64,000 nt of DNA from NCBI RefSeq assembly GCF_003334305.1, contig NZ_QOWS01000015.1; one strand, written 5' to 3'. Under the pieces are notes generated by a model. It saw only the letters and a program-made list of their open reading frames with translations, searched no databases and was not told the DNA's origin. Positions 35,528 to 51,518 of this stretch are shown here, piece after piece (position 1 is the first letter of the stretch; each line of letters opens with the position of its first letter). The position numbers were made by a program, and so were the translations under genes. The stretch is from Escherichia coli (GTDB lineage: Bacteria; Pseudomonadota; Gammaproteobacteria; Enterobacterales; Enterobacteriaceae).

Positions 35528-36571
35528 ATGAGCGAGAACTCGATTCGTTTGACCCAATACAGCCACGGAGCTGGTTGCGGCTGTAAAATTTCCCCAAAAG
35601 TGTTGGAAACCATCCTGCACAGTGAGCAGGCGAAGTTTGTTGATCCGAATTTGCTTGTGGGTAATGAGACCCGCGACGATGCGGCGGTGTACGATCTGGG
35701 CAATGGCACCAGCGTTATCAGTACCACCGACTTCTTTATGCCGATCGTTGATAATCCTTTCGATTTTGGCCGCATTGCGGCGACTAACGCCATCAGCGAT
35801 ATCTTCGCGATGGGGGGCAAACCGATTATGGCGATTGCGATCCTCGGCTGGCCGATTAACAAACTTTCCCCAGAAATTGCCCGCGAAGTAACCGAAGGTG
35901 GACGCTATGCATGCCGTCAGGCGGGTATTGCGCTGGCTGGCGGTCACTCCATCGATGCGCCGGAGCCGATTTTTGGTCTGGCGGTAACGGGGATCGTACC
36001 GACCGAGCGGGTGAAGAAAAACAGTACCGCACAAGCCGGATGCAAACTGTTCCTGACGAAACCGCTGGGGATCGGCGTTCTTACCACGGCTGAGAAAAAA
36101 TCACTGTTGAAACCAGAACATCAGGGACTGGCGACGGAAGTGATGTGCCGGATGAACATCGCAGGTGCGTCCTTTGCCAACATCGAAGGCGTAAAAGCGA
36201 TGACCGACGTTACTGGTTTTGGTCTGCTGGGCCATTTGAGCGAAATGTGTCAGGGCGCAGGTGTGCAGGCGCGCGTTGACTATGACGCGATCCCAAAATT
36301 GCCGGGGGTTGAAGAGTACATTAAGTTGGGCGCAGTGCCTGGCGGCACCGAACGTAACTTTGCCAGCTACGGTCATCTGATGGGTGAAATGCCGCGTGAA
36401 GTGCGCGATCTGCTGTGCGATCCGCAAACTTCTGGCGGTTTGCTGCTGGCGGTCATGCCGGAAGCAGAAAATGAGGTTAAAACTACAGCCGCCGAGTTTG
36501 GCATTGAACTGACGGCGATTGGCGAACTGGTGCCAGCGCGCGGCGGTCGTGCCATGGTTGAGATCCGTTAA
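35528..36571 (+). CDS. selD: Selenide, water dikinase (selenophosphate synthetase)
   Basis: ORF trimmed to [10 protein letters not shown] (347 aa); N-terminal HGAGCGCK. Confidence 0.95.
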
Positions 36572-41401: not shown

Positions 41402-41674
41402 GTGAGTCGAGCATTGTTCGCCGTAGTATTAGCATTTCCATTAATTGCACTGGCTAACCCGCATTATCGTCCGGACGTGGAGGTAAACGTACCGCCAGAA
41501 GTGTTCAGTTCAGGCGGGCAGTCAGCGCAGCCCTGTACTCAGTGCTGCGTTTATCAGGATCAAAATTATTCTGAAGGGGCGGTAATTAAAGCCGAAGGAA
41601 TACTGCTGCAATGCCAGCGGGATGACAAAACCCTTAGCACTAATCCGCTGCTCTGGCGGCGCGTAAAGCCATAA
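41402..41674 (+). CDS. ynjH: DUF1496 secreted protein YnjH, GTG start
   Basis: 90 aa with signal peptide; 3' end overlaps nudG 3' end (convergent). Confidence 0.8.
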   Translation: MSRALFAVVLAFPLIALANPHYRPDVEVNVPPEVFSSGGQSAQPCTQCCVYQDQNYSEGAVIKAEGILLQCQRDDKTLSTNPLLWRRVKP

Positions 41675-42047
41675 ACGCCTCTAATAGTGGAATGTCAGCA
41701 GGGGCCAGCGGATATTGCAGCGCCTCTTCAGGTGAGCACCAGACCAGCGCCTGATGTTCATGTGCCTGTAACGTCCCGTGGAAGTCGGGTACGTGCCAGG
41801 CATGAAGATGGATAATCCGGCCCGAAACTTCTCGCTGATGGCTGGCAACATACTCACCCACAGTTGCTTCGATGCCCAATTCTTCGTTTAACTCACGCAC
41901 CAGTGCCTGCTGCTGGCTTTCATCCAGCTCGACTTTACCACCGGCAAACTCCCATAATCCCGCCTGATCGCTCTGGGCGGGGCGTTGCGCGAGTAAAATT
42001 TTGCCATCACGTTCAATGATGGCGGCAACAACTTCAATCATTTTCAT
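41640..42047 (-). CDS. nudG: Nudix hydrolase NudG (CTP/5-methyl-dCTP pyrophosphohydrolase)
   Basis: 135 aa; Nudix box GGKVELDESQQQALVRELNEELGI. Confidence 0.9.
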   Translation of the reverse strand: MKMIEVVAAIIERDGKILLAQRPAQSDQAGLWEFAGGKVELDESQQQALVRELNEELGIEATVGEYVASHQREVSGRIIHLHAWHVPDFHGTLQAHEHQALVWCSPEEALQYPLAPADIPLLEAFMALRAARAAD

Positions 42048-42133
42048 AAATTACACACGGGCAGATAAGCGAAAAATGCCATAATATCCGCACTGTTGCT
42101 CAATCAGAAAGGCTTTATATTTAAGGAGTGCCT

Positions 42134-42754
42134 GTGCTAGACCGCCATCTTCATCCCCGGATTAAACCGTTGTTGCATCAGTGCGTGCGGGTTCTTGATA
42201 AACCGGGCATTACGCCAGATGGTTTAACATTAGTGGGATTTGCCATCGGCGTGCTGGCTCTGCCGTTTCTGGCGCTGGGCTGGTATCTGGCGGCGCTAGT
42301 CGTCATTTTGTTGAACAGGCTGCTTGATGGTCTGGACGGTGCGCTGGCGCGGCGCAGAGAGCTTACCGACGCGGGCGGCTTTCTTGATATTTCTCTCGAT
42401 TTTCTCTTTTACGCGCTGGTGCCGTTTGGCTTTATTCTTGCTGCACCGGAGCAAAATGCGCTGGCAGGCGGCTGGTTGTTGTTTGCGTTTATCGGCACGG
42501 GCAGCAGTTTTCTCGCCTTTGCTGCACTGGCAGCAAAACATCAGATTGATAACCCCGGTTATGCACATAAGTCGTTTTACTATCTGGGGGGATTAACCGA
42601 AGGCACAGAAACGATCTTACTGTTTGTGCTGGGATGTTTATTCCCTGCATGGTTTGCGTGGTTTGCGTGGATCTTCGGTGCGTTGTGCTGGATGACGACC
42701 TTTACGCGGGTGTGGAGTGGGTATCTGACGCTGAAGTCGCTCCAGCGTCAGTAA
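42134..42754 (+). CDS. ynjF: CDP-alcohol phosphatidyltransferase-family membrane protein YnjF
   Basis: ORF 42128..42754; preferred start is the second GTG (MLDRHLHP) with RBS taaggag; motif DGxxAR. Confidence 0.82.
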   Translation: MLDRHLHPRIKPLLHQCVRVLDKPGITPDGLTLVGFAIGVLALPFLALGWYLAALVVILLNRLLDGLDGALARRRELTDAGGFLDISLDFLFYALVPFGFILAAPEQNALAGGWLLFAFIGTGSSFLAFAALAAKHQIDNPGYAHKSFYYLGGLTEGTETILLFVLGCLFPAWFAWFAWIFGALCWMTTFTRVWSGYLTLKSLQRQ

Positions 42755-42762
42755 TTGCAATG

Positions 42763-44070
42763 TTATTTGCTACTGTCCGGGCCGCGTTCACCGGTTGCTA
42801 CCGGATTTTTTGGATCGCTGCTCCATTCGTACCAGCCGCCGTCATACACGGAAACATTCTTCCAACCCATGGCGCGTGCGTACATAAAGGTTTCGGACGC
42901 GCGCCAGCCGGTGCCGCAGTAGAATGAAACTTGCTGCTCTGGTTTGATATTCCACGCTTTCCACATAGCGGTAATATCATCGGCGCTGCGCATGGTGCCA
43001 TCCGGGTTATGAAAATCTTCCATATGCGTCGAGTCGCTACCAGCGTGTCCCCAACGTGCTCCGGCTATTTCACCTTTTGGTTTAATATAGCTGTAACCGC
43101 TGGTCGTACCGATAAATTCTGGCCACGAACGAATGCTCACCAGCGATGCATCCTGGCGATGCAGCAGTCCACGGGCCTGTTCCATATCGAGCATCAACTG
43201 CGGTTGTGCCGGGATCTTCACGCCGAAATCCGGTTCCGCTTTCACTTTCGGTGGCGTTCCTCGCTCAACAGGCAGTCCCGCGTCGGACCAGGTTTGCCAG
43301 CCGCCATCCAGCAGACGCACATCTTTCACGCCTGCGTAGAGCATAATTTGCGCCACACGCGCTCCAGCGTATACGTCACGCCCGTACAGAATGACCGTGG
43401 TGTCATGGCGAATGCCGTGTTTTGCCAGCATCGCTTTTAGTTGTTCATCAGAAACTTTGTTCCACAGCGGTTCGCTTTCCACTTCGTTGGTATCGATGTA
43501 GTCAGCGCCAGGAATATGGCTGATAAGGTAAAGCTTAGGAGCGCCCCAGGCCGCTTCAATGACTTTCCAGTCACCGGCAGGTTTCGCCGTAACCTCTTTA
43601 CCTTGTTGCAGGTCGTGCAGCCATTGCGGATAAACCAGCTGCTCAAAGTGCGGCAGTTTTTGTAGACGGGAAGGTTCGCTTAGCGCGTCACTCAGAATGG
43701 AGATATGCGTAAAACCTGCTTTTTGCAGACGCGTTTTGACGGCGTCGACATCTTTGTCATTGCCGTACAGCGCCACCGGAGCATCGGTTTTCAGATTATG
43801 TTGCTTGATCCACTCATAGAGCTGTTCGGTGCTCATTTTGTCGAGCCAGCTGGCAGAGAGGTTTAAGGCGGCAGGTTCATGACCAGAAGGGCCATTTAAG
43901 GTTTGTGGCCAGCCGTTATAAAACGCGCTGGGGCGAGTATCTATCGCTTTGCCATTTTGTTGTTGAAGCTGGTCAAGTGTAAGAGGCTTCGCCAGTTCAG
44001 CGGCCCACGAAGAAGCGCAAGCCAGCCCTAAAGCCATTGCCAGCGCGGTCATTTGAGAAACACGTTTCAT
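42763..44070 (-). CDS. ynjE: Periplasmic thiosulfate sulfurtransferase (multi-rhodanese) YnjE
   Basis: ORF trimmed to MKRVSQMTAL (435 aa) with signal peptide. Confidence 0.88.
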   Translation of the reverse strand: MKRVSQMTALAMALGLACASSWAAELAKPLTLDQLQQQNGKAIDTRPSAFYNGWPQTLNGPSGHEPAALNLSASWLDKMSTEQLYEWIKQHNLKTDAPVALYGNDKDVDAVKTRLQKAGFTHISILSDALSEPSRLQKLPHFEQLVYPQWLHDLQQGKEVTAKPAGDWKVIEAAWGAPKLYLISHIPGADYIDTNEVESEPLWNKVSDEQLKAMLAKHGIRHDTTVILYGRDVYAGARVAQIMLYAGVKDVRLLDGGWQTWSDAGLPVERGTPPKVKAEPDFGVKIPAQPQLMLDMEQARGLLHRQDASLVSIRSWPEFIGTTSGYSYIKPKGEIAGARWGHAGSDSTHMEDFHNPDGTMRSADDITAMWKAWNIKPEQQVSFYCGTGWRASETFMYARAMGWKNVSVYDGGWYEWSSDPKNPVATGERGPDSSK

Positions 44071-44136
44071 CGAAAATCCCGACATTGTAGTTTTGAGTGC
44101 GCCATTCTGAACTGACGCATTGAGAAAAACTTTGCG

Positions 44137-44790
44137 TTATCGCAGTTTGTTGTAATTTTCTGACCACTGCGCCATATCCAGAACAGAACTATCAGCAGGA
44201 ACATCCTGGAGATCGTGCGTTACCTGAACGACGGGGATCGCCAGTTCGCGAACTTCGCTGAACACCCACTGGCGAAAATTATCGCGCAGAGCCACATCAA
44301 GACGGCTGAATGGCTCATCCAGGAGTAACGCTTTTGGCTGAGCGAGAAGGGCGCGCAGCAGGGCCACCCGCGCTCGCTGACCGCCTGATAATGTCGCAGG
44401 GTCCTGGTGATAAGTTTCAGCCAGTCCCGCTCGATCAAGCGCGTCTTTCACGGCATTGCGCCTGGCAGTCCCCTTGAGCGTCGACGGTAGCGCCAGCAGT
44501 AAATTTTGCCCGACGCTGAACTGGTCAAATAACAGTGCATCCTGGAAAAGAATGCCAATCTGACGCTGTGCGGTGGGTAGCATGTCAATCCGTTGCTCAT
44601 TGAACCATAGCTCACCTGTACAAGAAAACTGTCCAGCCAGTGCACCAATCATCCATGAAAACAGAGTGGATTTTCCACAGCCAGACGGCCCCATTAACGT
44701 GACAATGTCACCTTTATCCACCGTAAAGTTAACGTTTGTCAGCAAGCGGCTTTCTGGTAAACGTAGCGAAACATTTTTCACGCAGAGCAT
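44137..44790 (-). CDS. ynjD: ABC transporter ATP-binding protein YnjD
   Basis: ORF trimmed to MLCVKNVSL (217 aa); Walker A GPSGCGKST and signature LSGGQR. Confidence 0.88.
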   Translation of the reverse strand: MLCVKNVSLRLPESRLLTNVNFTVDKGDIVTLMGPSGCGKSTLFSWMIGALAGQFSCTGELWFNEQRIDMLPTAQRQIGILFQDALLFDQFSVGQNLLLALPSTLKGTARRNAVKDALDRAGLAETYHQDPATLSGGQRARVALLRALLAQPKALLLDEPFSRLDVALRDNFRQWVFSEVRELAIPVVQVTHDLQDVPADSSVLDMAQWSENYNKLR

Positions 44791-46325
44791 TAGCGGAGTC
44801 CTTGTCTGACATAACCTACCCATTTTGCGACTAACGCGGTCAGGGCAAAAATAATAAGCGGTAACAACAGTTGCCATAAAGCCTGGGCGGCGAGAATACC
44901 GTTGCTGCCGCCGCTGCTTAATGCCACCGCCTCAGTGGTGAGCGTCGGAAAACGCCCCGCGCCCAGCCACAGCGTCGGCATATACTGCGCAATACTGACT
45001 GAAAATCCCACCGCGAAGGCAATCAGCACAGGGCGCAACATGAGTGGGCATTTCACGTAAAAGAAGATTTTGGCCCGCGACCAGCCCAGTGTTTGCGCAA
45101 TCAAAATTAACCGTGAATCAATGCGCTGCCAGGCGGGTTGCAGGATAAACAGCATCCACGGCATTACCCACAGCAGATGCCCCCAGACCACCGCCGTCCA
45201 GCTTCCATCCAGGTTCAGCCATAGCGCCAGCGTGTACTGGCCCGCCACCAGTGGCAGAGCGGGCAATAGAATGGGCAACCAGAGCCACAACTGGCGACGC
45301 TGTGGCCCCCATTCCAGCCACAGCAGTAACAGGAGCAAAGCGATGAATGTCGCCACCAGCCCCATTGTCAGGCTGTTGATGAGTGCTTCACTATTGATCG
45401 TCGACTGATCCGCGAGGATCGCCAGCAGAACCACACACAGCACACCGGTTAAGGGTAAAAAACTCGCCAGCGTAGTGCCTGGTAATAAAGGTGTGGCAGG
45501 CTTGCGAATGCCATCTACGCGGGGAATAGTGCGCCGCCAGCTGCGCCATAGCAGATAGCTCAGCAAAACGTAGGCGGCGAGTAACAGCATCAGCAGCAGA
45601 CTGGCGAGTGCGCCTTTCGTTTGTTGATCCGCGTCGCCCTGAGTTAACCACTGCCAGCTAATTACTGCCAGCGTCGGTGGATTACCTGGCCCAAGAATAA
45701 TCGCCACATCCACGACCGAAAGCGACCAGGCAACAATCGCCAGCATCGCCATTGCCAGCGAAGGCGCGACGGAGGGCAACAGCAGCCAGTTCAGGCATTG
45801 CCAGCGGCTGTAGCCCAGCGAATCCAGCACAATGACCTGCTGCAACAGCCGTTTTTCGCTCAATACTGCCGCTAAGATCCACAGCAGAAATGCGCTTTCT
45901 TTCACTGCAAGGGTGAGGCCCAGACCGATGCCAAATCGGTCCATTGGCGGAGTGAAATACGGGAAATAGTCATATAGCAGCCCTCCGTCAGCAAAGAGCA
46001 GCAGGGCGCTGGTGGCAAAAGCCACATGGGGAATGGCGAGCAGCCACGGCAGACGGGCGCACATACGCTGCCATTTCGGCCCAGGCCATAGCGCCACAAT
46101 CACCAGCAGGGCAATCAACAATGCCCCGACCGCCGCGATGGTTGTCGACACCAGCGTTGCCAGTAATGCATGCGGTAACTGTGGATCGGCAAATAACGCC
46201 TGCCAGTGTGTCAACGACAACGCAGGCGATATCAGCGTGAGAGCTGCCGGGATCAGCGGTGCATAAATCACCGCCACCATCGCCCACAGCAAAAAGATTA
46301 ATGCGTACCGTAACGGCGTAACCAT
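44790..46325 (-). CDS. ynjC: ABC transporter permease YnjC
   Basis: ORF trimmed to MVTPLRYALIF (511 aa); stop overlaps ynjD start. Confidence 0.88.
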   Translation of the reverse strand: MVTPLRYALIFLLWAMVAVIYAPLIPAALTLISPALSLTHWQALFADPQLPHALLATLVSTTIAAVGALLIALLVIVALWPGPKWQRMCARLPWLLAIPHVAFATSALLLFADGGLLYDYFPYFTPPMDRFGIGLGLTLAVKESAFLLWILAAVLSEKRLLQQVIVLDSLGYSRWQCLNWLLLPSVAPSLAMAMLAIVAWSLSVVDVAIILGPGNPPTLAVISWQWLTQGDADQQTKGALASLLLMLLLAAYVLLSYLLWRSWRRTIPRVDGIRKPATPLLPGTTLASFLPLTGVLCVVLLAILADQSTINSEALINSLTMGLVATFIALLLLLLWLEWGPQRRQLWLWLPILLPALPLVAGQYTLALWLNLDGSWTAVVWGHLLWVMPWMLFILQPAWQRIDSRLILIAQTLGWSRAKIFFYVKCPLMLRPVLIAFAVGFSVSIAQYMPTLWLGAGRFPTLTTEAVALSSGGSNGILAAQALWQLLLPLIIFALTALVAKWVGYVRQGLR

Positions 46326-47464
46326 TCTTGTTCCAGTGCATTCACCCATCCTGCGTGCGGTTCAGCCAGTACCGGCGGCAGATCCTGCGGCATTCTTGAT
46401 TGCAATATTTCGCGCTGCCCGTCAGGCAGTTTTTGCGGATCGAGAACAGAAGGATCGCCCCAGACAACGGGATCTGCTTTACGCAGTTGCGCATCGGGTG
46501 AGAGCAGGAAATTGGCAACTACCTTCGCCGCAGCACTGGCATTCGCGTTGGCTGGAATGGTGACGAAATGCACGTTGCCTATCATCCCCTCGCGAAAGCC
46601 AAAACTGTAACTGCTTGCCGGCAAATCGCCGCTGGCGATTTTTTGCTGCGCATGCGCGGGGCTAAAGGTCAGCGACAGGCGCAATGTGCCGGCTTTCAGC
46701 AGAGCATCCATCCGCGCGGGCGAAGGCGGGAAATCCTTTCCTTCGCGCCACAAATACGGATGTAGCGCATCAAGATATTGCCACAAGGGAGCAGTGACAC
46801 GGGCGAAAGTCGCATCGTCCGGCGCTTCTTTTAATGCGGCGGGATCTGGCGTCAGCATAATCAGCAACTGTTCAAGAAACGCCGTGCCGGTAAAGTCCGG
46901 TGGGCGCGGATAAGTAACCGTGCCGGGATTGACTTTAGCAAACTCCAGTAAGGCTTGCGGCGTTTGTGGTGGCTGTGGCGTAACATCGCGGCGGGCGATA
47001 AACGTCAGTTGTGCGCCGCCCCAGGGCGATTCCGCACCTTGTGTCGGCACTGAAAAATCTTCCCGCACCGGCAGCTGTGTGTCGACATAGCGCCAGTTGG
47101 GCAGAGTCTCCGCCCAGCCCGTTTGTAATAAATTGGCCTCTTTTAAGGTGCGGAAGTTTTCGCCGTTCACCCAGAGCAGATCCACCGAGCCGCCCGTTTT
47201 ACGTCCGGCAGCAGCTTCGGTCTGAATGCGCTTCACCGCGTCTGCGGCATCCGCGAGACGAACAATCTTCAGGTTTATAGCGTAATGGGTTTTCATCTCG
47301 CCGCTAACCCAGTCGAGATAGCGGTTAATTGCGGTATCGCCGCCCCAGGCGTTAAACCAGACGGTTTGCCCTTTGGCCTCATTTTTAATTTCCTGCCAGT
47401 CACTGGCATGTGTTGCCAAAGAAAACAGCGATAACAATCCCAGCAACCACCCACAATGGCGCAT
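46298..47464 (-). CDS. ynjB: ABC transporter periplasmic substrate-binding protein YnjB
   Basis: 388 aa with signal peptide. Confidence 0.88.
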   Translation of the reverse strand: MRHCGWLLGLLSLFSLATHASDWQEIKNEAKGQTVWFNAWGGDTAINRYLDWVSGEMKTHYAINLKIVRLADAADAVKRIQTEAAAGRKTGGSVDLLWVNGENFRTLKEANLLQTGWAETLPNWRYVDTQLPVREDFSVPTQGAESPWGGAQLTFIARRDVTPQPPQTPQALLEFAKVNPGTVTYPRPPDFTGTAFLEQLLIMLTPDPAALKEAPDDATFARVTAPLWQYLDALHPYLWREGKDFPPSPARMDALLKAGTLRLSLTFSPAHAQQKIASGDLPASSYSFGFREGMIGNVHFVTIPANANASAAAKVVANFLLSPDAQLRKADPVVWGDPSVLDPQKLPDGQREILQSRMPQDLPPVLAEPHAGWVNALEQEWLRRYGTH

Positions 47465-47473
47465 CTTCCCTCC

Positions 47474-48022
47474 TTAAGAACGTTTTTCCGGAATACGGCA
47501 CAGCCCCTGAGCGGGAATGTCCATGGCAGAATTAAAACGAGCCGACAGGTTTTGCAGGCCGATCAATGCCGTCAGTTCGGTGAGCGCCTGAGCGTCAAAA
47601 TGCGCAGCCAGTCGGGTACGCAGGGCATCATCGACTGTTGGCGGTGTGACGCTTGCGGCTTCGGCGTACTCCAGCGCCAGCCGTTCTTCATCGCTAAAGA
47701 GCGGGCTTTGCCGCCAGTCAGCCACTGCCAGCAGTTTATCGTTGCTGCCGGTACGCTCGGCGACTTTCATACTGGTGATATCCACGCAAAACTCACACAG
47801 GCACATTTGCGCAATGCGCGCGCTGACAAGCGATCGCACTACCGGATCGAGCGGTGAGCGTTTGCGCTCCAGCCACCCAACAAACATTGACACCAAATAA
47901 AAGATAAACGGGATCCGCCCCCACCAGCGAATCGGGCTTAGCACCTCGCCGTAATGGCGACGATGCAGCCACGCCTGCGGACGTAAAATGAAAGGAATTT
48001 TGCTAAGCGGCGGTAAACCCAT
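47474..48022 (-). CDS. ynjA: Carboxymuconolactone decarboxylase (AhpD-like) family protein YnjA
   Basis: 182 aa ORF. Confidence 0.88.
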   Translation of the reverse strand: MGLPPLSKIPFILRPQAWLHRRHYGEVLSPIRWWGRIPFIFYLVSMFVGWLERKRSPLDPVVRSLVSARIAQMCLCEFCVDITSMKVAERTGSNDKLLAVADWRQSPLFSDEERLALEYAEAASVTPPTVDDALRTRLAAHFDAQALTELTALIGLQNLSARFNSAMDIPAQGLCRIPEKRS

Positions 48023-48729
48023 CAGTCATTCCTCTTCTGGCGCTCAAGCCATATTTTCTTCGCCATAAAAATCACCACGGTCAGGGCAAACAGAATAAAC
48101 AGTCCGGTGACAAACCAGAAAGTACCGCCTGTTAACATGCTGCCCGCCCAGGAATAAACAATAGTCGCCGGTAATTGACCAAGCCCGGTGGCGATAAAAA
48201 ACGAGCGAAAACGTATTGAAGTCAGACCGGCAGCATAGCTGATTGGATCGAAAGGGACAAAAGGCAATAACCGACAGACCAGGATGGTGTGTTTGCCGTA
48301 GCGAGTGAAAAAGCCGTCCATACTGTCAAGCACGGTTTTGCCGGTTAATTTTTCCACCACTTCGCGGCCCATCACTCTGGCGATAAAAAAGCACAGCGCC
48401 GCGCCGGCCATCGAACTGGTCCACGACAGCAAGCCGCCCCAGAACGCGCCAAACAGCGACGCATTGGCAAAGGTGATCAAAAACGCAGGTAGCGGTGCAG
48501 CAATGGCCTGTAAAATCATCAACAAGAACGAGACAACTGCCGCCAGTGCGCCGTAAGACTGAATAAAGCGTTCTATACCCTGTTGGTCCACGGCGGCAAA
48601 CGCCGCAACGCTGCGATTGATAAACTCATGGACGCCGGGAAGCAGCGCCCATGCGAGCAGCATAGCGAACAACAGGATGATGAGGGTTATACGGTAGTAC
48701 CAGATTTTACGCGATTGTATCTTCATCAT
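48022..48729 (-). CDS. ydjZ: TVP38/TMEM64 (DedA-related) inner-membrane protein YdjZ
   Basis: 235 aa membrane ORF. Confidence 0.88.
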   Translation of the reverse strand: MMKIQSRKIWYYRITLIILLFAMLLAWALLPGVHEFINRSVAAFAAVDQQGIERFIQSYGALAAVVSFLLMILQAIAAPLPAFLITFANASLFGAFWGGLLSWTSSMAGAALCFFIARVMGREVVEKLTGKTVLDSMDGFFTRYGKHTILVCRLLPFVPFDPISYAAGLTSIRFRSFFIATGLGQLPATIVYSWAGSMLTGGTFWFVTGLFILFALTVVIFMAKKIWLERQKRND

Positions 48730-48743
48730 CCTTTATCCTGGCT

Positions 48744-49421
48744 TTATTCGGTGATTTTAAAGGTAACCGTTGCCAGCGTGTTATCCGCCGGGAGAACTGA
48801 GGCATTGCCTTTGAATTTCACTTCGCCGCGTTTTTCCACCGCACCATAAGTGTATGTTGCATTGCTGACGATGCCGACCGGGCAGCTATCCAGACACACC
48901 AGGCAACCCGTTTTCTTCTCTTCTGCTGCCGTTAAATTACCGCCAAAGCGCATGTCCAGTTTCTTGCCATTACTGTCAACAATCACTTCATCGAAGGAAT
49001 ACGCTTTTGCCGCCCCTTGCCAGTTGACCGAAATATCCAGTTTGCTGCCTGTGACATGAGTCGTTTCTTTATTATCCATCGTCATGTTTTCGCCCGGCGT
49101 ACCACCTGCCTCTTTCAGGGCTTCATAAAATGCTTTCGGGGTCGCATAAGCCATAAACAGCGATTTATGTCCGTTGGAGCCATCTTTAAACACAATACCG
49201 TGACGAGTGTCGTCGGTGAGGAAACGACCATTAATTTGCACCAGCATGGTTACCGTATGGTTATTGGCATCGACGCGCAGCGGTTGGCTGTTCGAAAGTC
49301 CGTCGTATTCCACTTTTGCCGCCGCATTCTCTTTTTGATCGCAGCCGCTAAGCCCGGCAACAGCCAGTAAGCAGAGTGCAGCCAGTCCTTTTTTCCATGA
49401 CACTGAATAATGTTGCGACAT
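48744..49421 (-). CDS. ydjY: Lipoprotein with C-terminal Cys-rich (ferredoxin-like) motif YdjY
   Basis: ORF trimmed to MSQHYSVSWKK (225 aa); lipobox LSGC; CxxCxxxC. Confidence 0.85.
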   Translation of the reverse strand: MSQHYSVSWKKGLAALCLLAVAGLSGCDQKENAAAKVEYDGLSNSQPLRVDANNHTVTMLVQINGRFLTDDTRHGIVFKDGSNGHKSLFMAYATPKAFYEALKEAGGTPGENMTMDNKETTHVTGSKLDISVNWQGAAKAYSFDEVIVDSNGKKLDMRFGGNLTAAEEKKTGCLVCLDSCPVGIVSNATYTYGAVEKRGEVKFKGNASVLPADNTLATVTFKITE

Positions 49422-49425
49422 CGTT

Positions 49426-50136
49426 CTATCCTTCATTTTTTGGGTGAGTAAGTGGGCTGCGGCGCGAAGCAGACAGATCCACATGTTTGTGTCGGGCGTA
49501 GAGTTTTGCGAGCTGGACGAGAATAAACAGCGCCAGGCCCGCCAGACAGAGTTGTAAAATAAAGCGCAGCGTAATGCCTTCATTGGCGAGATCGCTTGCC
49601 ATCACGGTATAAATAACAATACCGGGCAGGGTCGTGAGTGCCGAAATAAGGGTATAAGGCCAGAAGGCGATGGTGGTTAATCCGTAAGCGTAATTTTGAA
49701 TATTGTAAGGAAACAACGGGATTAAGCGGGTCAGAATAAGAAAATCAATACCGTTACGCGCAATGCCTTTTTCAATGGCCTGGAAGGTATGGCTATGGCC
49801 CACGTATTTCAGCAGTAAATCACGTCCCAGCCAGCGCGCCAGCAGGAATGAGCACGAGGAGGCCAGCGTTGCGGCAATTAATGAGAGTAGTGTCCCTAAG
49901 AGCGGGCCAAAAACTATTCCTCCAGCGATCACCAGTATGCTTCCTGGTAACAGAAAGAGGGTGGCAATGATGAATAACAGAATATAGAGGCTACAACCGA
50001 ACAATCCGCTCTGGCGAATGAGTGTCTGTAAGTGGGGTAAATCGGTGAGCAGATCGAATAAACCGAAAGCGTGGATAGCGTAAATGACCAGCGCAAAAAT
50101 AAGACAGGCAAACAGAAAGTTACGCTCAGCGTTCAT
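49426..50136 (-). CDS. ydjX: TVP38/TMEM64 family inner-membrane protein YdjX
   Basis: ORF trimmed to MNAERNFLFA (236 aa). Confidence 0.85.
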   Translation of the reverse strand: MNAERNFLFACLIFALVIYAIHAFGLFDLLTDLPHLQTLIRQSGLFGCSLYILLFIIATLFLLPGSILVIAGGIVFGPLLGTLLSLIAATLASSCSFLLARWLGRDLLLKYVGHSHTFQAIEKGIARNGIDFLILTRLIPLFPYNIQNYAYGLTTIAFWPYTLISALTTLPGIVIYTVMASDLANEGITLRFILQLCLAGLALFILVQLAKLYARHKHVDLSASRRSPLTHPKNEG

Positions 50137-50302
50137 CGTGGAGTTTCCTATATCAAACTTGATAATAGAGAAGTGGTCAGACAACTAAAAACGCAGTGAC
50201 GGTATAACAAAGGACGGCAGGCAACAAATCATTACTGACAGTTTGTTGATTTTTCTCAAGGTTAATTCTCCTGACCCAGTTTGAGCCAGGAGAGCTGCTA
50301 AA

Positions 50303-51109
50303 TTAGCGGCGGAAGGTCGCCCAGACGGGGGCGTGATCGGACGGTTTTTCCATGCTGCGAATTTCATAGTCGATGCCGGTTTCTACGCAACATTCTGCCA
50401 GCGGTTGGCTGGCGAGCAGCAGGTCGATGCGCAGACCACGGTTATCGTCAAAACCTTTTGAGCGGTAATCAAACCATGAGAAACGATCTGCTGTTTGCGG
50501 ATTAGCATGGCGGAAGGTATCGACCAACCCCCAGCTCATCAGCCTGTCCATCCATTCGCGCTCTTCCGGCAGGAAAGAGCATTTACCGGTACGCAGCCAG
50601 CGCTTACGGTTTTCTTCGCCAATGCCGATATCCAGATCTGTAGGGCTGATATTCATATCGCCCATAATCAGTACCGGATTATCACGTTTGAGTTCGGTTT
50701 CCAGGTAGTTTTGCAGATTCTGATAAAACTGCGCTTTTGCCGGGAATTTTATCGGATGGTCGCGGCTTTCACCCTGCGGGAAGTAACCGTTGATCACGGT
50801 GACATTACCCAGCAGTGAGGGGATTTCCGCCATAATAATCCGCCGCTGCGCCTCTTCGTCGTCACCGGGAAAGCCGCGACGCACGGCAATCGGCGTCTCT
50901 TTGGTCAGCAGCGCCACGCCATAATGGCCTTTCTGCCCGTGATAAAACACGTTGTAGCCGAGCTTCGCCACCTCTTCGAGCGGAAACATATCGTCATGAA
51001 CTTTTGTCTCCTGCAGGCCAATCACATCCGGTTGGTGCTTTTCGACGATGGCTTCAAGCTGGTGAGGTCTGGCGCGCAGGCCGTTGATATTAAAAGAGAC
51101 AAATTTCAT
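50303..51109 (-). CDS. xthA: Exodeoxyribonuclease III
   Basis: ORF trimmed to [14 protein letters not shown] (268 aa). Confidence 0.96.
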
Positions 51110-51466
51110 AGTCGCTGCCATTTATTCAGATAAAGAGTGCGTGGATGGTAGCAGAATTTCGCGTTGCTTACCGCCTGTTGTTAAGTGATTTGATCGATGG
51201 TTGTTAATGATGTCAACGATGGCGCAAAAAATGCCCGCTTTTGGTGCGCGCTGCGTCAGAATGGCGCAGTAATTTCCAGTAAATTTCGTCAATGATCACA
51301 ATTCCAGAATTATATTTTACTTCTGCATAACATTGCGTTTTTTATTCTTTTTATTCACCCACATCGCAAACGTATTCACTTTATATGCACTTTAAATGCA
51401 TATGGTTTGGTTATAACTCCTTGATTTCCAGTTAGCCTCCGCCGTTTATGCACTTTTATCACTGGC

Positions 51467-51482
51467 TGGCACGAACCCTGCA
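51467..51482 (+). promoter_or_regulatory. Sigma-54 promoter-like element TGGCAC-N5-CTGCA upstream of astC
   Basis: GG/GC dinucleotides spaced as in the -24/-12 consensus, about 75 bp upstream of astC; ast operon is known to be NtrC/sigma-54 and ArgR controlled. Confidence 0.6.
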
Positions 51483-51518
51483 ATCTACATTTACAGCGCA
51501 AACATTACTTATTGTTAA

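Follow-up and report, generated by a model that had tools for sequence, protein, structure and literature searches.

Gene content of the locus

The window, a 64,000-nucleotide stretch of an Escherichia coli contig (NZ_QOWS01000015.1), contains ynjA through ynjE, which are real core E. coli genes and were annotated before now. The five-gene region matches many E. coli chromosomes at 100% identity, and 5408 of the 5426 complete E. coli genomes carry at least 80% of it. A first-pass annotation had placed a five-gene set at 42763–48022, and its first and last positions are exactly the RefSeq gene limits; RefSeq and the domain matches also agree on its composition, an AhpD-like ynjA, an importer ynjBCD, and a secreted rhodanese ynjE. 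Its boundary omitted ynjF, which is convergent to ynjE and lies 8 bp from the ynjE stop. Gene coordinates are those of the RefSeq annotation transferred to the window (window position = locus position + 37762).

42134–42754, plus strand: ynjF, CDP-alcohol phosphatidyltransferase family membrane protein (RefSeq annotation)
42763–44070, minus strand: ynjE, secreted three-domain rhodanese
44084–44111, minus strand: sigma-70 promoter-like site TTCAGA-16-TACAAT, within the ynjD-ynjE gap
44137–44790, minus strand: ynjD, ABC ATPase
44790–46325, minus strand: ynjC, fused double permease
46298–47464, minus strand: ynjB, periplasmic substrate-binding protein, family NF008633
47474–48022, minus strand: ynjA, AhpD-like/CMD protein
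48022–48729, minus strand: ydjZ, TVP38/DedA (COG0398) membrane protein
48744–49421, minus strand: ydjY, lipoprotein, NF040466
49426–50136, minus strand: ydjX, TVP38/DedA membrane protein, the operon's first gene
50246–50259, minus strand: FNR-box-like palindrome TTGAGAAAAATCAA, between xthA and ydjX, with one mismatch to TTGAT-N4-ATCAA

Transcription units and FNR control

The gene junctions had initially been described as tight or overlapping. This holds for ynjA/ynjB (9-bp gap), ynjB/ynjC (28-bp overlap), and ynjC/ynjD (1-bp overlap), but ynjD and ynjE are separated by 66 bp with a promoter-like site inside, so that junction is not tight. The site is the sole promoter-like match within 42400–50500 and is consistent with ynjE having a promoter of its own. 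An operon running from ynjA to ynjE also proved too narrow: ydjX, ydjY, and ydjZ are packed as tightly as ynjABCD, the ydjZ stop overlapping the ynjA start by 1 bp, so the unit starts at ydjX (50136) and not at ynjA. Published FNR data likewise lead to a start at ydjX. Myers et al. (PMC3688515) reported ydjXYZ-ynjABCD to be FNR-activated, with a site at −60.5, and listed ynjE on its own as a further FNR-activated unit, its site lying at −41.5. The position of the box at 50246–50259 fits the −60.5 site, and no FNR box with two or fewer mismatches was found in the ynjD-ynjE gap. The transcription unit is ydjX-ydjY-ydjZ-ynjABCD, with ynjE separately FNR-dependent under its own promoter. Both units belong to one uncharacterised anaerobic iModulon, comprising ydjXYZ-ynjABCD, ynjE, yedEF, and yjiLM, which its authors relate to the use of molybdenum and selenium (PMC7888660); ynjF, on the strand opposite to ynjBCD in E. 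coli, is not listed in it.

The importer and its accessory proteins

YnjB, YnjC, and YnjD form a type-I, binding-protein-dependent ABC importer, as the first-pass annotation had supposed. YnjB has an N-terminal signal peptide, matches the SBP_bac_8 and SBP_bac_1 domains, and scores 555 bits against NF008633 (cutoff 203), a family of about 300 clusters at 50% identity (E < 1e-30). YnjC consists of two BPD_transp_1 halves, one strong and one weak, with about 12 hydrophobic or membrane segments, and YnjD carries a Walker A motif (GPSGCGKS, at 34), an LSGGQ signature (at 134), and LLLDEP. The top NCBIfam matches of YnjC and YnjD are PhnU2 (weak), another fused permease, and PhnT2, respectively; the importer proteins miss all curated equivalog cutoffs in NCBIfam. 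The AlphaFold model of YnjB (pLDDT 95) has as its nearest PDB folds generic cluster-D binding proteins, at 11–18% identity and a query-normalised TM-score of at most 0.67.

YnjE, described at the outset as a secreted multi-rhodanese, does have three rhodanese domains and a signal peptide, with identity to PDB entries 3IPO and 2WLR. The only cysteine of the mature protein is Cys385, in an intact active-site loop, CGTGWR. It has been placed in the periplasm, and the purified protein showed poor activity with thiosulfate or 3-mercaptopyruvate and no detectable thiosulfate:GSH activity, its physiological donor being called unclear (PMC10215317). YnjA is a CMD/AhpD-like protein with the motif C74-x-C76-x-x-C79 (CLCEFC), in which no signal peptide was found. 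NCBIfam matches of YnjA (101 versus 310 bits) and of YnjE to models with "seleno" in their names fall far under the cutoff. YdjY has a lipobox (LSGC27) and an invariant C173-xx-C176-xxx-C180-P motif, and a search of the PDB found no informative relative of its fold. YnjF carries the signature D..DG..AR-x7-9-G...D...D from residue 65, kept in 57 of 57 homologues; its closest NCBIfam models, archaetidylinositol-phosphate and PIP synthases, are matched under cutoff.

Gene neighborhoods in other bacteria

We compared 80 loci from other species, 59 of them outside the core enterics. In evolutionary terms the core consists of ynjBCD in translational coupling with ynjF, usually joined by a DedA/TVP38 protein and by a redox partner of the thiol/disulfide type. 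In other bacteria ynjF is the commonest conserved partner: in 39 of the 59 non-enteric loci it adjoins or overlaps a same-strand ynjD. DedA (22) and a class-I disulfide reductase (18) come next, and the six Vibrio loci contain ynjBCDF alone. The redox partner varies. It may be YnjA, of the AhpD type, a DedA fusion carrying either a class-I flavoprotein disulfide reductase (frequent near the importer) or an HdrD-like CCG domain, or a C_GCAxxG_C_C protein. YnjE, YnjA, and YdjY are found in none of the 59, and no rhodanese lies beside the importer there. Among enterics, every one of the 20 loci extending far enough has ynjE after ynjD, and in most genera, unlike E. coli, a ynjA homologue lies directly upstream of ynjF.

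The core also lies repeatedly beside the selenophosphate synthetase SelD or TIGR03169, the oxidoreductase that is SelD's fusion partner. TIGR03169 occurs in 12 and SelD in 5 of the non-enteric loci, either one in 13 loci spanning at least three orders; where both flanks extend 8 kb or more, only 8 of 34 loci have either. All 11 TIGR03169 candidates scanned exceed the curated 310-bit cutoff, and the SelD assignments pass their own. The two are fused in three Comamonadaceae loci (L034, L046, L079) and adjacent in L080, while in Rhizobiales a standalone TIGR03169 directly adjoins ynjD (L053, L075, L076) or ynjB (L058, L073). In Deefgea (L024), TIGR03169, a DedA::reductase fusion, ynjBCDF, and DUF3047 follow one another on one strand. 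The NADH-dehydrogenase-like::SelD fusion is widespread (PMC4561486), and it is only through the fusion with SelD that a function for TIGR03169 has been inferred. In Enterobacteriaceae selD is 6–10 kb away (35528–36571 in the window), a single arrangement that is vertically inherited.

The E. coli parts list recurs independently in one distant anaerobe. There, an extracytoplasmic, YnjE-like lipoprotein rhodanese (40% identity, same CGTGWR loop) lies with a YnjB-family binding protein, YdjY, a pair of DedA genes, and an FeS/CCG redox protein. A second case runs DedA-DedA-Cys-redox protein-YnjF::YnjB. The link between YnjE and the importer is probably functional, given the position of ynjE after ynjD in every enteric locus that reaches that far, the FNR activation of both units within one transcriptional module, and the pairing of rhodanese and binding protein in this anaerobe.

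Relation to known systems

Like the fused-permease importers of cluster D (ThiBPQ for thiamine, FbpABC/AfuABC for iron or sugar-phosphate, PhnS/T2/U2 for 2-aminoethylphosphonate, PotABCD for polyamine), YnjBCD has one binding protein, one fused double permease, and one ATPase, and the YnjB model superposes on PhnS (4r6y), FbpA, PotD, AfuA, and TbpA. Unlike them, YnjB sits in a family of its own, far in sequence from every solved binding protein, and the importers named are not characteristically coupled to DedA and a CDP-alcohol phosphatidyltransferase. CysPUWA/Sbp is likewise a binding-protein-dependent system, with a chalcogen oxyanion as substrate, but its permease layout differs and no cys-regulon genes lie near ynj. 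In E. coli, yedEF is co-expressed with the ynj/ydj module. SelD-centred neighbourhoods (Lin et al. 2015) resemble the ynj loci in their proximity to SelD or TIGR03169 and in their thiol-redox and sulfurtransferase-type accessory proteins, although the ynj linkage is partial (13 of 59 loci). After its own entries, the next PDB matches of YnjE are "Sulfurtransferase" chains of the 6H98 and 6KTV series (E about 1e-87, residues 33–427), which we take to be EanB, the anaerobic ergothioneine synthase; unlike EanB, YnjE is secreted, has no hercynine pathway genes nearby, and is weakly active with standard donors. LicABC- and Pcs-type head-group pathways share with the ynj loci the coupling of an importer to a CDP-alcohol phosphatidyltransferase or, in the anaerobe locus L095, to a choline-kinase-fold kinase and nucleotidyl/glycosyl transferases instead. 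YnjF differs from Pcs-type enzymes, scoring about 20 bits against phosphatidylcholine synthase cutoffs of 300–440, and the PIP-synthase models are missed as well.

What the importer may carry

The substrate was first suggested to be a sulfur compound such as thiosulfate; on this reading YnjBCD would take up thiosulfate, polysulfide, or another sulfane-sulfur donor for processing by periplasmic YnjE. The intact active-site loop of YnjE, its RefSeq product name, thiosulfate sulfurtransferase, the constancy of its enteric position, its recurrence near a YnjB-type binding protein in the distant anaerobe, and relatives of the co-regulated YedE reported to transport sulfur compounds, zero-valent sulfur among them (PMC10812762; PMC11582611), are in keeping with this. 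The curated Cys-transporter models are nevertheless missed by large margins (CysT, 24 versus 246 bits; CysA, 116 versus 502), no CysP or Sbp match was obtained, and the conserved neighbours include no gene of sulfur assimilation. E. coli also already has CysPUWA for thiosulfate. With the enzymology of YnjE and the lack of a rhodanese in the 59 non-enteric loci weighing against it too, thiosulfate uptake is poorly supported, and we regard sulfur import in general as improbable. Less probable again is that there is no shared function, YnjE being a sulfur relay for molybdopterin synthesis and its adjacency to the importer an accident of enteric synteny. Its own promoter, the gap from ynjD, the restriction of the rhodanese to enterics among proteobacterial loci, and the annotation of YnjE as a molybdopterin synthase sulfurtransferase (PMC3688515, which cites a report that YnjE and IscS act in that synthesis) would fit; a periplasmic protein is ill-suited to a cytoplasmic cofactor pathway, however, and both the shared iModulon and the recurrence in the anaerobe argue against chance. 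Some sources label YnjB homologues "putative thiamine transport system" (the JGI names of P0028 and P0087), but a thiamine-type importer seems very improbable indeed: ThiQ is among the better ATPase matches and TbpA among the fold neighbours (rank 30), but ThiQ, at 132, stays under its cutoff of 245, ThiB gives no match, TbpA ranks under many other binding proteins at 14–15% identity, no TPP or other riboswitch was found within 41500–51500, and no thiamine genes are among the neighbours.

A simple ion-uptake scheme leaves YnjF without a part. Its presence in the module implies an alcohol destined to be a phospholipid head group, either the imported molecule itself or a carrier for that molecule. 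YnjBCD may salvage a polar alcohol, a sugar, or a polyol (a metalloid-sugar is possible, for instance a derivative of an arsenosugar or selenosugar), which YnjF joins to CDP-diacylglycerol to make a novel membrane lipid flipped by DedA, the rhodanese and redox proteins being lineage-specific accessories. The coupling to a YnjF whose catalytic motif is intact throughout, fusions of YnjB to YnjF (P0194), to GT2, and to an ICMT/PEMT-like protein, and reports that some DedA relatives are lipid-carrier flippases (10.1101/2022.02.03.479048; 10.1101/2023.01.04.522824) speak for such a route. So do the TIGR04283 and TIGR04282 transferases (above cutoff), which five Comamonadaceae loci carry next to ynjD/ynjF, which L034 and L044 have although they lack YnjF, and which in L095 come with a kinase of the APH/choline-kinase fold. 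Against it, no such lipid is known from E. coli, whose ynjF stands apart in strand and iModulon, and head-group salvage alone leaves the disulfide-reductase, AhpD-like, rhodanese, and SelD/TIGR03169 neighbours unaccounted for. We consider it unlikely, if less so than the readings above.

A possible role in anaerobic selenium acquisition

Within an envelope module induced under anaerobiosis (ydjXYZ-ynjABCD with ynjE and ynjF), the five genes occupy the distal part. Our tentative preference, which we put forward as a possibility, is that the module serves to acquire selenium, or a related scarce chalcogen or metalloid, and to reduce it anaerobically. The chalcogen theme of the first-pass annotation survives, pointing to selenium more than sulfur, and selenium is the best candidate element, on evidence that is guilt by association throughout. 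TIGR04282 and TIGR04283, named for arsenosugar synthesis, are neighbours that point to arsenic or sugar and not to inorganic selenium. The fold neighbours of YnjB bind very different ligands and mature YnjB has no cysteine, which counts against selenium. So do the partial linkage to SelD or TIGR03169, the single inherited arrangement behind the enteric selD proximity, the sub-cutoff "seleno" matches, and the reported part of YnjE in molybdopterin synthesis. The literature searched, including PMC9312934 for selenium candidates, names no ynj or ydj family among them and reports for these genes neither a ligand nor a phenotype nor expression that responds to selenium. The "specific" selenite route of E. 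coli is uncharacterised (PMC2744661; PMC9312934), and in Cupriavidus selenite uptake has been linked to a DedA protein, as cited in PMC8679861.

Under the selenium reading, YnjE, through Cys385, and the Cys-motif lipoprotein YdjY would capture the element in the periplasm as a persulfide/perselenide-type adduct or, alternatively, free it from a carrier. YnjB would then bind the transported species for import by YnjCD, with the DedA proteins perhaps acting as a parallel carrier or flippase, and YnjA might reduce the imported species in the cytoplasm through its CxxC. The selenide produced could pass to SelD and, from there, supply the selenocysteine formate dehydrogenases.

Extent and regulation of the operon

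The genes ynjA to ynjE lie on the minus strand, and the interval that the first-pass annotation assigned to them, 42763-48022, has the ynjE stop and the ynjA start as its exact ends. This region of 5260 bp is 100% identical to that of many E. coli strains, and 5408 of 5426 complete E. coli genomes contain at least 80% of it.

Genes of the ynj cluster (coordinates in the window, transferred from RefSeq)
42763-44070, minus strand: ynjE, rhodanese
44137-44790, minus strand: ynjD, ATPase
44790-46325, minus strand: ynjC, fused permease
46298-47464, minus strand: ynjB, binding protein
47474-48022, minus strand: ynjA, AhpD-like protein

Short gaps separate ydjX from ydjY (4 bp), ydjY from ydjZ (14 bp) and ynjA from ynjB (9 bp), while ydjZ/ynjA (1 bp), ynjB/ynjC (28 bp) and ynjC/ynjD (1 bp) overlap. 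The tight or overlapping junctions noted earlier within the cluster thus hold from ynjA to ynjD but not for ynjD/ynjE, where the gap is 66 bp. Because every junction from ydjX to ynjD is tight, the packed unit begins at ydjX (50136) and not at ynjA; ynjABCDE had been taken as the whole unit, and ydjX, ydjY and ydjZ are packed directly upstream of it. This operon, with ydjX as its first gene, is controlled by FNR. A near-perfect FNR box with one mismatch lies at 50246-50259, between xthA and ydjX, and the sole sigma-70-like promoter match within 42400-50500 falls in the ynjD-ynjE gap. Both agree with the two directly FNR-activated units that Myers et al. defined by ChIP and expression, ydjXYZ-ynjABCD (site at -60.5) and ynjE (site at -41.5) (PMC3688515). 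For ynjE, no FNR box with two or fewer mismatches was found, and the evidence for FNR there is the published ChIP (PMC3688515). In E. coli transcriptomes, independent-component analysis groups ydjXYZ-ynjABCD, ynjE, yedEF and yjiLM into a single uncharacterised iModulon that is active under anaerobiosis and that its authors tentatively connect with Mo/Se usage (PMC7888660). Overproduction of BaeR has also been reported to induce ynjABCD modestly (PMC2731931).

YdjX and YdjZ belong to the TVP38/TMEM64 family in RefSeq, with weak NCBIfam matches to UptA/DedA (29-36 bits), and PF09335 is recorded on genes near YdjY and YnjB homologues in other genomes. The lipoprotein YdjY bears a CxxCxxxCP motif (Cys173/176/180) that is invariant. 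GC content steps from 0.485-0.493 in ydjX and ydjY (48744-50136) to 0.56-0.57 in ynjA, ynjB and ynjC (44790-48022), which is consistent with a mosaic origin of the operon. An Rfam match to tmRNA_permuted at 44756-44921 on the plus strand, antisense to the ynjC/ynjD junction, is almost certainly due to chance (25.6 bits against a gathering threshold of 47, E 0.047).

The importer and its associated proteins

YnjBCD is a type-I binding-protein-dependent ABC importer, as had been proposed. YnjB matches SBP_bac_8 (E 3.6e-13), constitutes its own NCBI family (NF008633, 555 bits against a cutoff of 203), carries the signal peptide MRHCGWLLGLLSLFSLATHA and has a two-lobed predicted model (pLDDT 95). 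YnjC contains two BPD_transp_1 regions, at residues 346-502 (E 2.4e-7) and, weakly, at residues 96-255 (E 1.4), among approximately 12 hydrophobic segments, with an EAA-like loop at 410. In YnjD, which has 185 NCBIfam ABC ATPase family matches, the motifs read as intact (Walker A GPSGCGKS at 34, LSGGQ at 134 and Walker B LLLDEP). YnjB had no match in a sequence search against the PDB, and the Foldseek matches were all generic cluster-D binding proteins whose ligands are unrelated, so the fold gives no guide to the ligand class. In architecture the system resembles the fused-permease cluster-D importers (Thi, Fbp/Afu, Phn type 2 and Pot) but is not a member of any of them. One 574-aa YnjB homologue from an ENA assembly (P0002, 98% identical to YnjB) carries both CMD and SBP domains and has the look of a YnjA-YnjB read-through, in which the 9-bp gap was probably bridged by a frameshift or a gene-calling artefact.

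The descriptions of YnjE as a secreted rhodanese and of YnjA as AhpD-like are both borne out. YnjE has a signal peptide and three PF00581 rhodanese domains, is identical to PDB 3IPO/2WLR, and contains a single cysteine in its mature form, Cys385, in the six-residue loop CGTGWR of the C-terminal domain. It has been reported to act in molybdopterin synthesis, as cited in PMC3688515. YnjA has a CMD domain (PF02627, E 3.6e-8) and the motif CLCEFC, of which C76-E-F-C79 forms a CxxC, and its PDB relatives include 2IJC, 2O4D and the AhpD structure 6K40. We considered YnjA as a member of the YciW-related (seleno)protein family NF053654, and its score of 101.5 bits against a cutoff of 310 marks a related family only; all "seleno" NCBIfam names for YnjA and YnjE are sub-threshold and so give no evidence of membership.

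An in-frame ATG 15 nt upstream of the annotated ynjE start, at 44085 (44070-44089, minus strand), opens a 440-aa reading frame and overlaps TACAAT, the predicted -10 hexamer. Should the published FNR site at -41.5 put the start of transcription near 44085, the ynjE message could lack a leader altogether or carry one of approximately 15 nt. A sigma-54 binding site has also been reported inside ynjE, at 1,838,205-1,838,213 of MG1655 (PMC4591121).

Convergent to ynjE is ynjF, whose stop codon lies 8 bp away (42754-42763). The signature D-x2-D-G-x2-A-R-x7-9-G-x3-D-x3-D begins at residue 65 of YnjF, is intact in 57 of 57 homologues and sits in a protein with approximately five hydrophobic segments; judged by this signature in a polytopic membrane protein, YnjF is a member of the CDP-alcohol phosphatidyltransferase family. 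No specific assignment reached its cutoff: the best, archaetidylinositol phosphate synthase, scored 63.2 against an equivalog cutoff of 180, followed by PIP synthase (41.9 against 170) and Pcs (about 20 against 300-440). A YnjF::YnjB fusion (P0194; the double colon denotes a fusion protein) exists, with PF01066 recorded. A second convergent pair, ynjH/nudG, overlaps by 35 bp (41640-41674), and both pairs are candidate excludons (PMC12288877).

A conserved core in other species

The YnjB family comprises approximately 300 clusters at 50% identity (E below 1e-30). Scanning one genome per species with 20 YnjB sequences that share W[IV]NGENF yielded 80 loci, a set therefore biased toward that motif and toward Proteobacteria, which we analysed by tblastn, ORF clustering and NCBIfam; many come from related genera, so the counts below are not independent. 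Among the 21 Enterobacteriaceae loci, ynjD is followed by ynjE in all whose contig extends far enough, with ynjF convergent behind ynjE. Of these loci, those of Escherichia and one Citrobacter are the only ones with ydjY, and only there does ynjA lie inside the ABC operon. In Citrobacter, Enterobacter, Kluyvera, Cedecea and others, a ynjA homologue sits directly upstream of ynjF on the other strand, an arrangement that links ynjA and ynjF with the importer within the enterics as well.

The 59 non-enteric loci come from Comamonadaceae, other Burkholderiales, Deefgea, Propionivibrio, Vibrio/Salinivibrio, Oceanospirillaceae and Rhizobiales. They contain YnjD (48), YnjC (44), YnjF (39), DedA (22), a class-I flavoprotein disulfide reductase typically fused to a DedA domain (18), the oxidoreductase domain TIGR03169 (12), DUF3047 (9) and SelD (5), with ynjD and ynjF often overlapping. 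YnjE, YnjA and YdjY were each found in none of the 59, where a sensitive phmmer search for rhodanese gave one marginal match. The rhodanese link to the importer is real but lineage-restricted. The conserved core consists of ynjBCD, ynjF, DedA and a thiol/disulfide-type redox partner, and this partner has been replaced non-orthologously from lineage to lineage. AhpD-like proteins recur beside the DedA::reductase in Rhodoferax, and one metagenomic locus reads DedA-DedA-C_GCAxxG_C_C-YnjF::YnjB.

Fusions of DedA/TVP38 to the class-I flavoprotein disulfide reductase occur in Proteobacteria (L024, 7775-9925; L046, 14261-16420), and in Desulfarculus a DedA beside YdjY is fused to an HdrD-like Fe-S/CCG domain (L092, 9205-10977). 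Such gene fusions hint that COG0398 DedA proteins may work with a cytoplasmic reductase. Genes for an MNIO-type RiPP (bufferin-like) maturase and an HvfX-family protein near some Comamonadaceae ynjB genes (L044, 8022-8963; L034, 17323-17880) are probably unrelated neighbours. Three remote YnjB homologues (P0159, P0168 and P0179; 37-46% identity) lie in unrelated contexts, may have other specificities and were left out of the evidence.

YdjY homologues of 50-60% identity occur in the strict anaerobes Finegoldia, Peptostreptococcus and Desulfarculus, where they always adjoin a DedA gene. One anaerobe (L094/L095) has two divergent units, with YdjY and a second DedA opposite a unit that encodes a lipoprotein rhodanese resembling YnjE (40% identity, loop YYCGTGWRA), a binding protein of the YnjB family (451 bits, 35% identity), DedA, an Fe-S/CCG protein, a choline-kinase-fold kinase, a permease and a fused TIGR04282+TIGR04283 transferase with both domains above cutoff. 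These are the parts found in E. coli, put together with other head-group enzymes. NCBI names TIGR04282/TIGR04283 arsenosugar-biosynthesis glycosyltransferases. The pair also adjoins ynjD/ynjF in five Comamonadaceae loci, occurs without YnjF in L034 and L044, lies near a remote YnjB homologue (L089) and appears as a GT2::YnjB fusion (P0131).

Selenium-linked neighbours

The pyridine-nucleotide-disulfide-oxidoreductase domain TIGR03169 is defined by being fused N-terminally to SelD, the selenophosphate synthetase, and this fusion is the commonest of the bacterial SelD fusions (PMC4561486). TIGR03169 or SelD is present in 13 of the 59 non-enteric loci, from Burkholderiales, Rhizobiales and Deefgea, and in 8 of the 34 that have 8 kb or more on both sides; Vibrio loci and many Rhodoferax loci have neither. 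All scanned TIGR03169 candidates near YnjB clear the curated cutoff, as the SelD calls do that of their own model.

Arrangements of TIGR03169 and SelD at non-enteric ynjB loci
Comamonadaceae L034, L046, L079: TIGR03169::SelD beside ynjBCDF - DedA::reductase - DUF3047
L080: TIGR03169 beside a separate SelD
L061: SelD alone
Rhizobiales L053, L075, L076: standalone TIGR03169 directly after ynjD
Rhizobiales L058, L073: standalone TIGR03169 directly before ynjB
Deefgea L024: TIGR03169 - DedA::reductase - ynjBCDF - DUF3047, on one strand

These lineage-specific arrangements argue against simple inheritance of one gene order. In enterics, selD lies 6-10 kb from the ynj cluster (35528-36571, plus strand, in the window, about 6 kb from ynjE/ynjF), with topB directly downstream. 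A total of 16 enteric loci share this spacing, which may be left over from the selD linkage of other lineages or be plain synteny. The E. coli selenoproteins are formate dehydrogenases, important mainly in anaerobic growth. The co-expressed yedEF genes have been linked to selenium by comparative genomics (PMC5322559), and a DedA protein has been implicated in selenite uptake in Cupriavidus, as cited in PMC8679861. According to two reviews, a high-affinity or specific bacterial selenium uptake route has never been identified, and the "specific" selenite route of E. coli is uncharacterised (PMC9312934, PMC2744661). Our literature searches on ynjF, ynjB and the ynj genes with selenium returned nothing functional.

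Possible functions of the module

We infer that the module handles something both imported and reduced, in connection with a phospholipid or sugar head-group transferase. Given the recurring SelD/TIGR03169 neighbours, the co-expression of yedEF and anaerobic FNR control, selenium is the best single candidate, which we put forward tentatively, as a reading somewhat short of probable. YnjE and YdjY would capture the element in the periplasm, YnjBCD and/or DedA would import it, and YnjA would reduce it in the cytoplasm, towards SelD. This scheme leaves YnjF without explanation. The main rival, which we consider rather unlikely, takes YnjF at face value: an imported alcohol, sugar or polyol would become a lipid head group through YnjF, possibly a metalloid-sugar in view of the TIGR04282/TIGR04283 neighbours. 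A further proposal, that ydjXYZ-ynjABCD, ynjE and ynjF together form the dedicated route for acquiring selenium (metalloid) that has been missing in E. coli and many Proteobacteria, via a lipid-linked intermediate, is very doubtful. Under it, YnjF would make a phosphatidyl-type carrier or metalloid-sugar phospholipid from the compound imported by YnjBCD, COG0398 DedA proteins would flip this product to the other side of the membrane, YnjE in the periplasm and the YdjY lipoprotein would load or unload the element, and thiol reductases (YnjA, the DedA-fused reductases and TIGR03169) would release selenide for SelD.

Import of sulfur or thiosulfate, the substrate suggested in the first-pass annotation, now appears quite unlikely. 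YnjE is without apparent thiosulfate:GSH activity, and its physiological donor has been called unclear (PMC10215317); curated models of CysPUWA failed to claim the importer (no CysP/Sbp match; CysT 24.3 against 246.1; CysA 115.6 against 502); and no sulfur genes are found among the conserved neighbours. That ynjE and the importer share no function is very unlikely, an idea weakened by their independent recurrence in the anaerobe of L094/L095. A thiamine importer is extremely improbable, since ThiBPQ membership also failed (ThiQ 132 against 245; no ThiB match) and an Rfam scan of the locus for TPP, Moco and other riboswitches found none.

Implications

The core annotated E. coli y-genes, the YnjE crystal structures and FNR control were already known; in the literature searched, we found no description of the conserved importer-YnjF-DedA-reductase module or its selenium/metalloid neighbourhood. 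The old partner of the importer is a phospholipid head-group transferase with DedA proteins, not the rhodanese, and the module recurs beside selenophosphate synthetase or its fusion partner. This comparative pattern bears on bacterial selenium uptake and on the roles of COG0398 DedA proteins and YnjF. If the selenium link fails, the coupling of the importer with YnjF still predicts an undescribed lipid or head-group pathway in E. coli.
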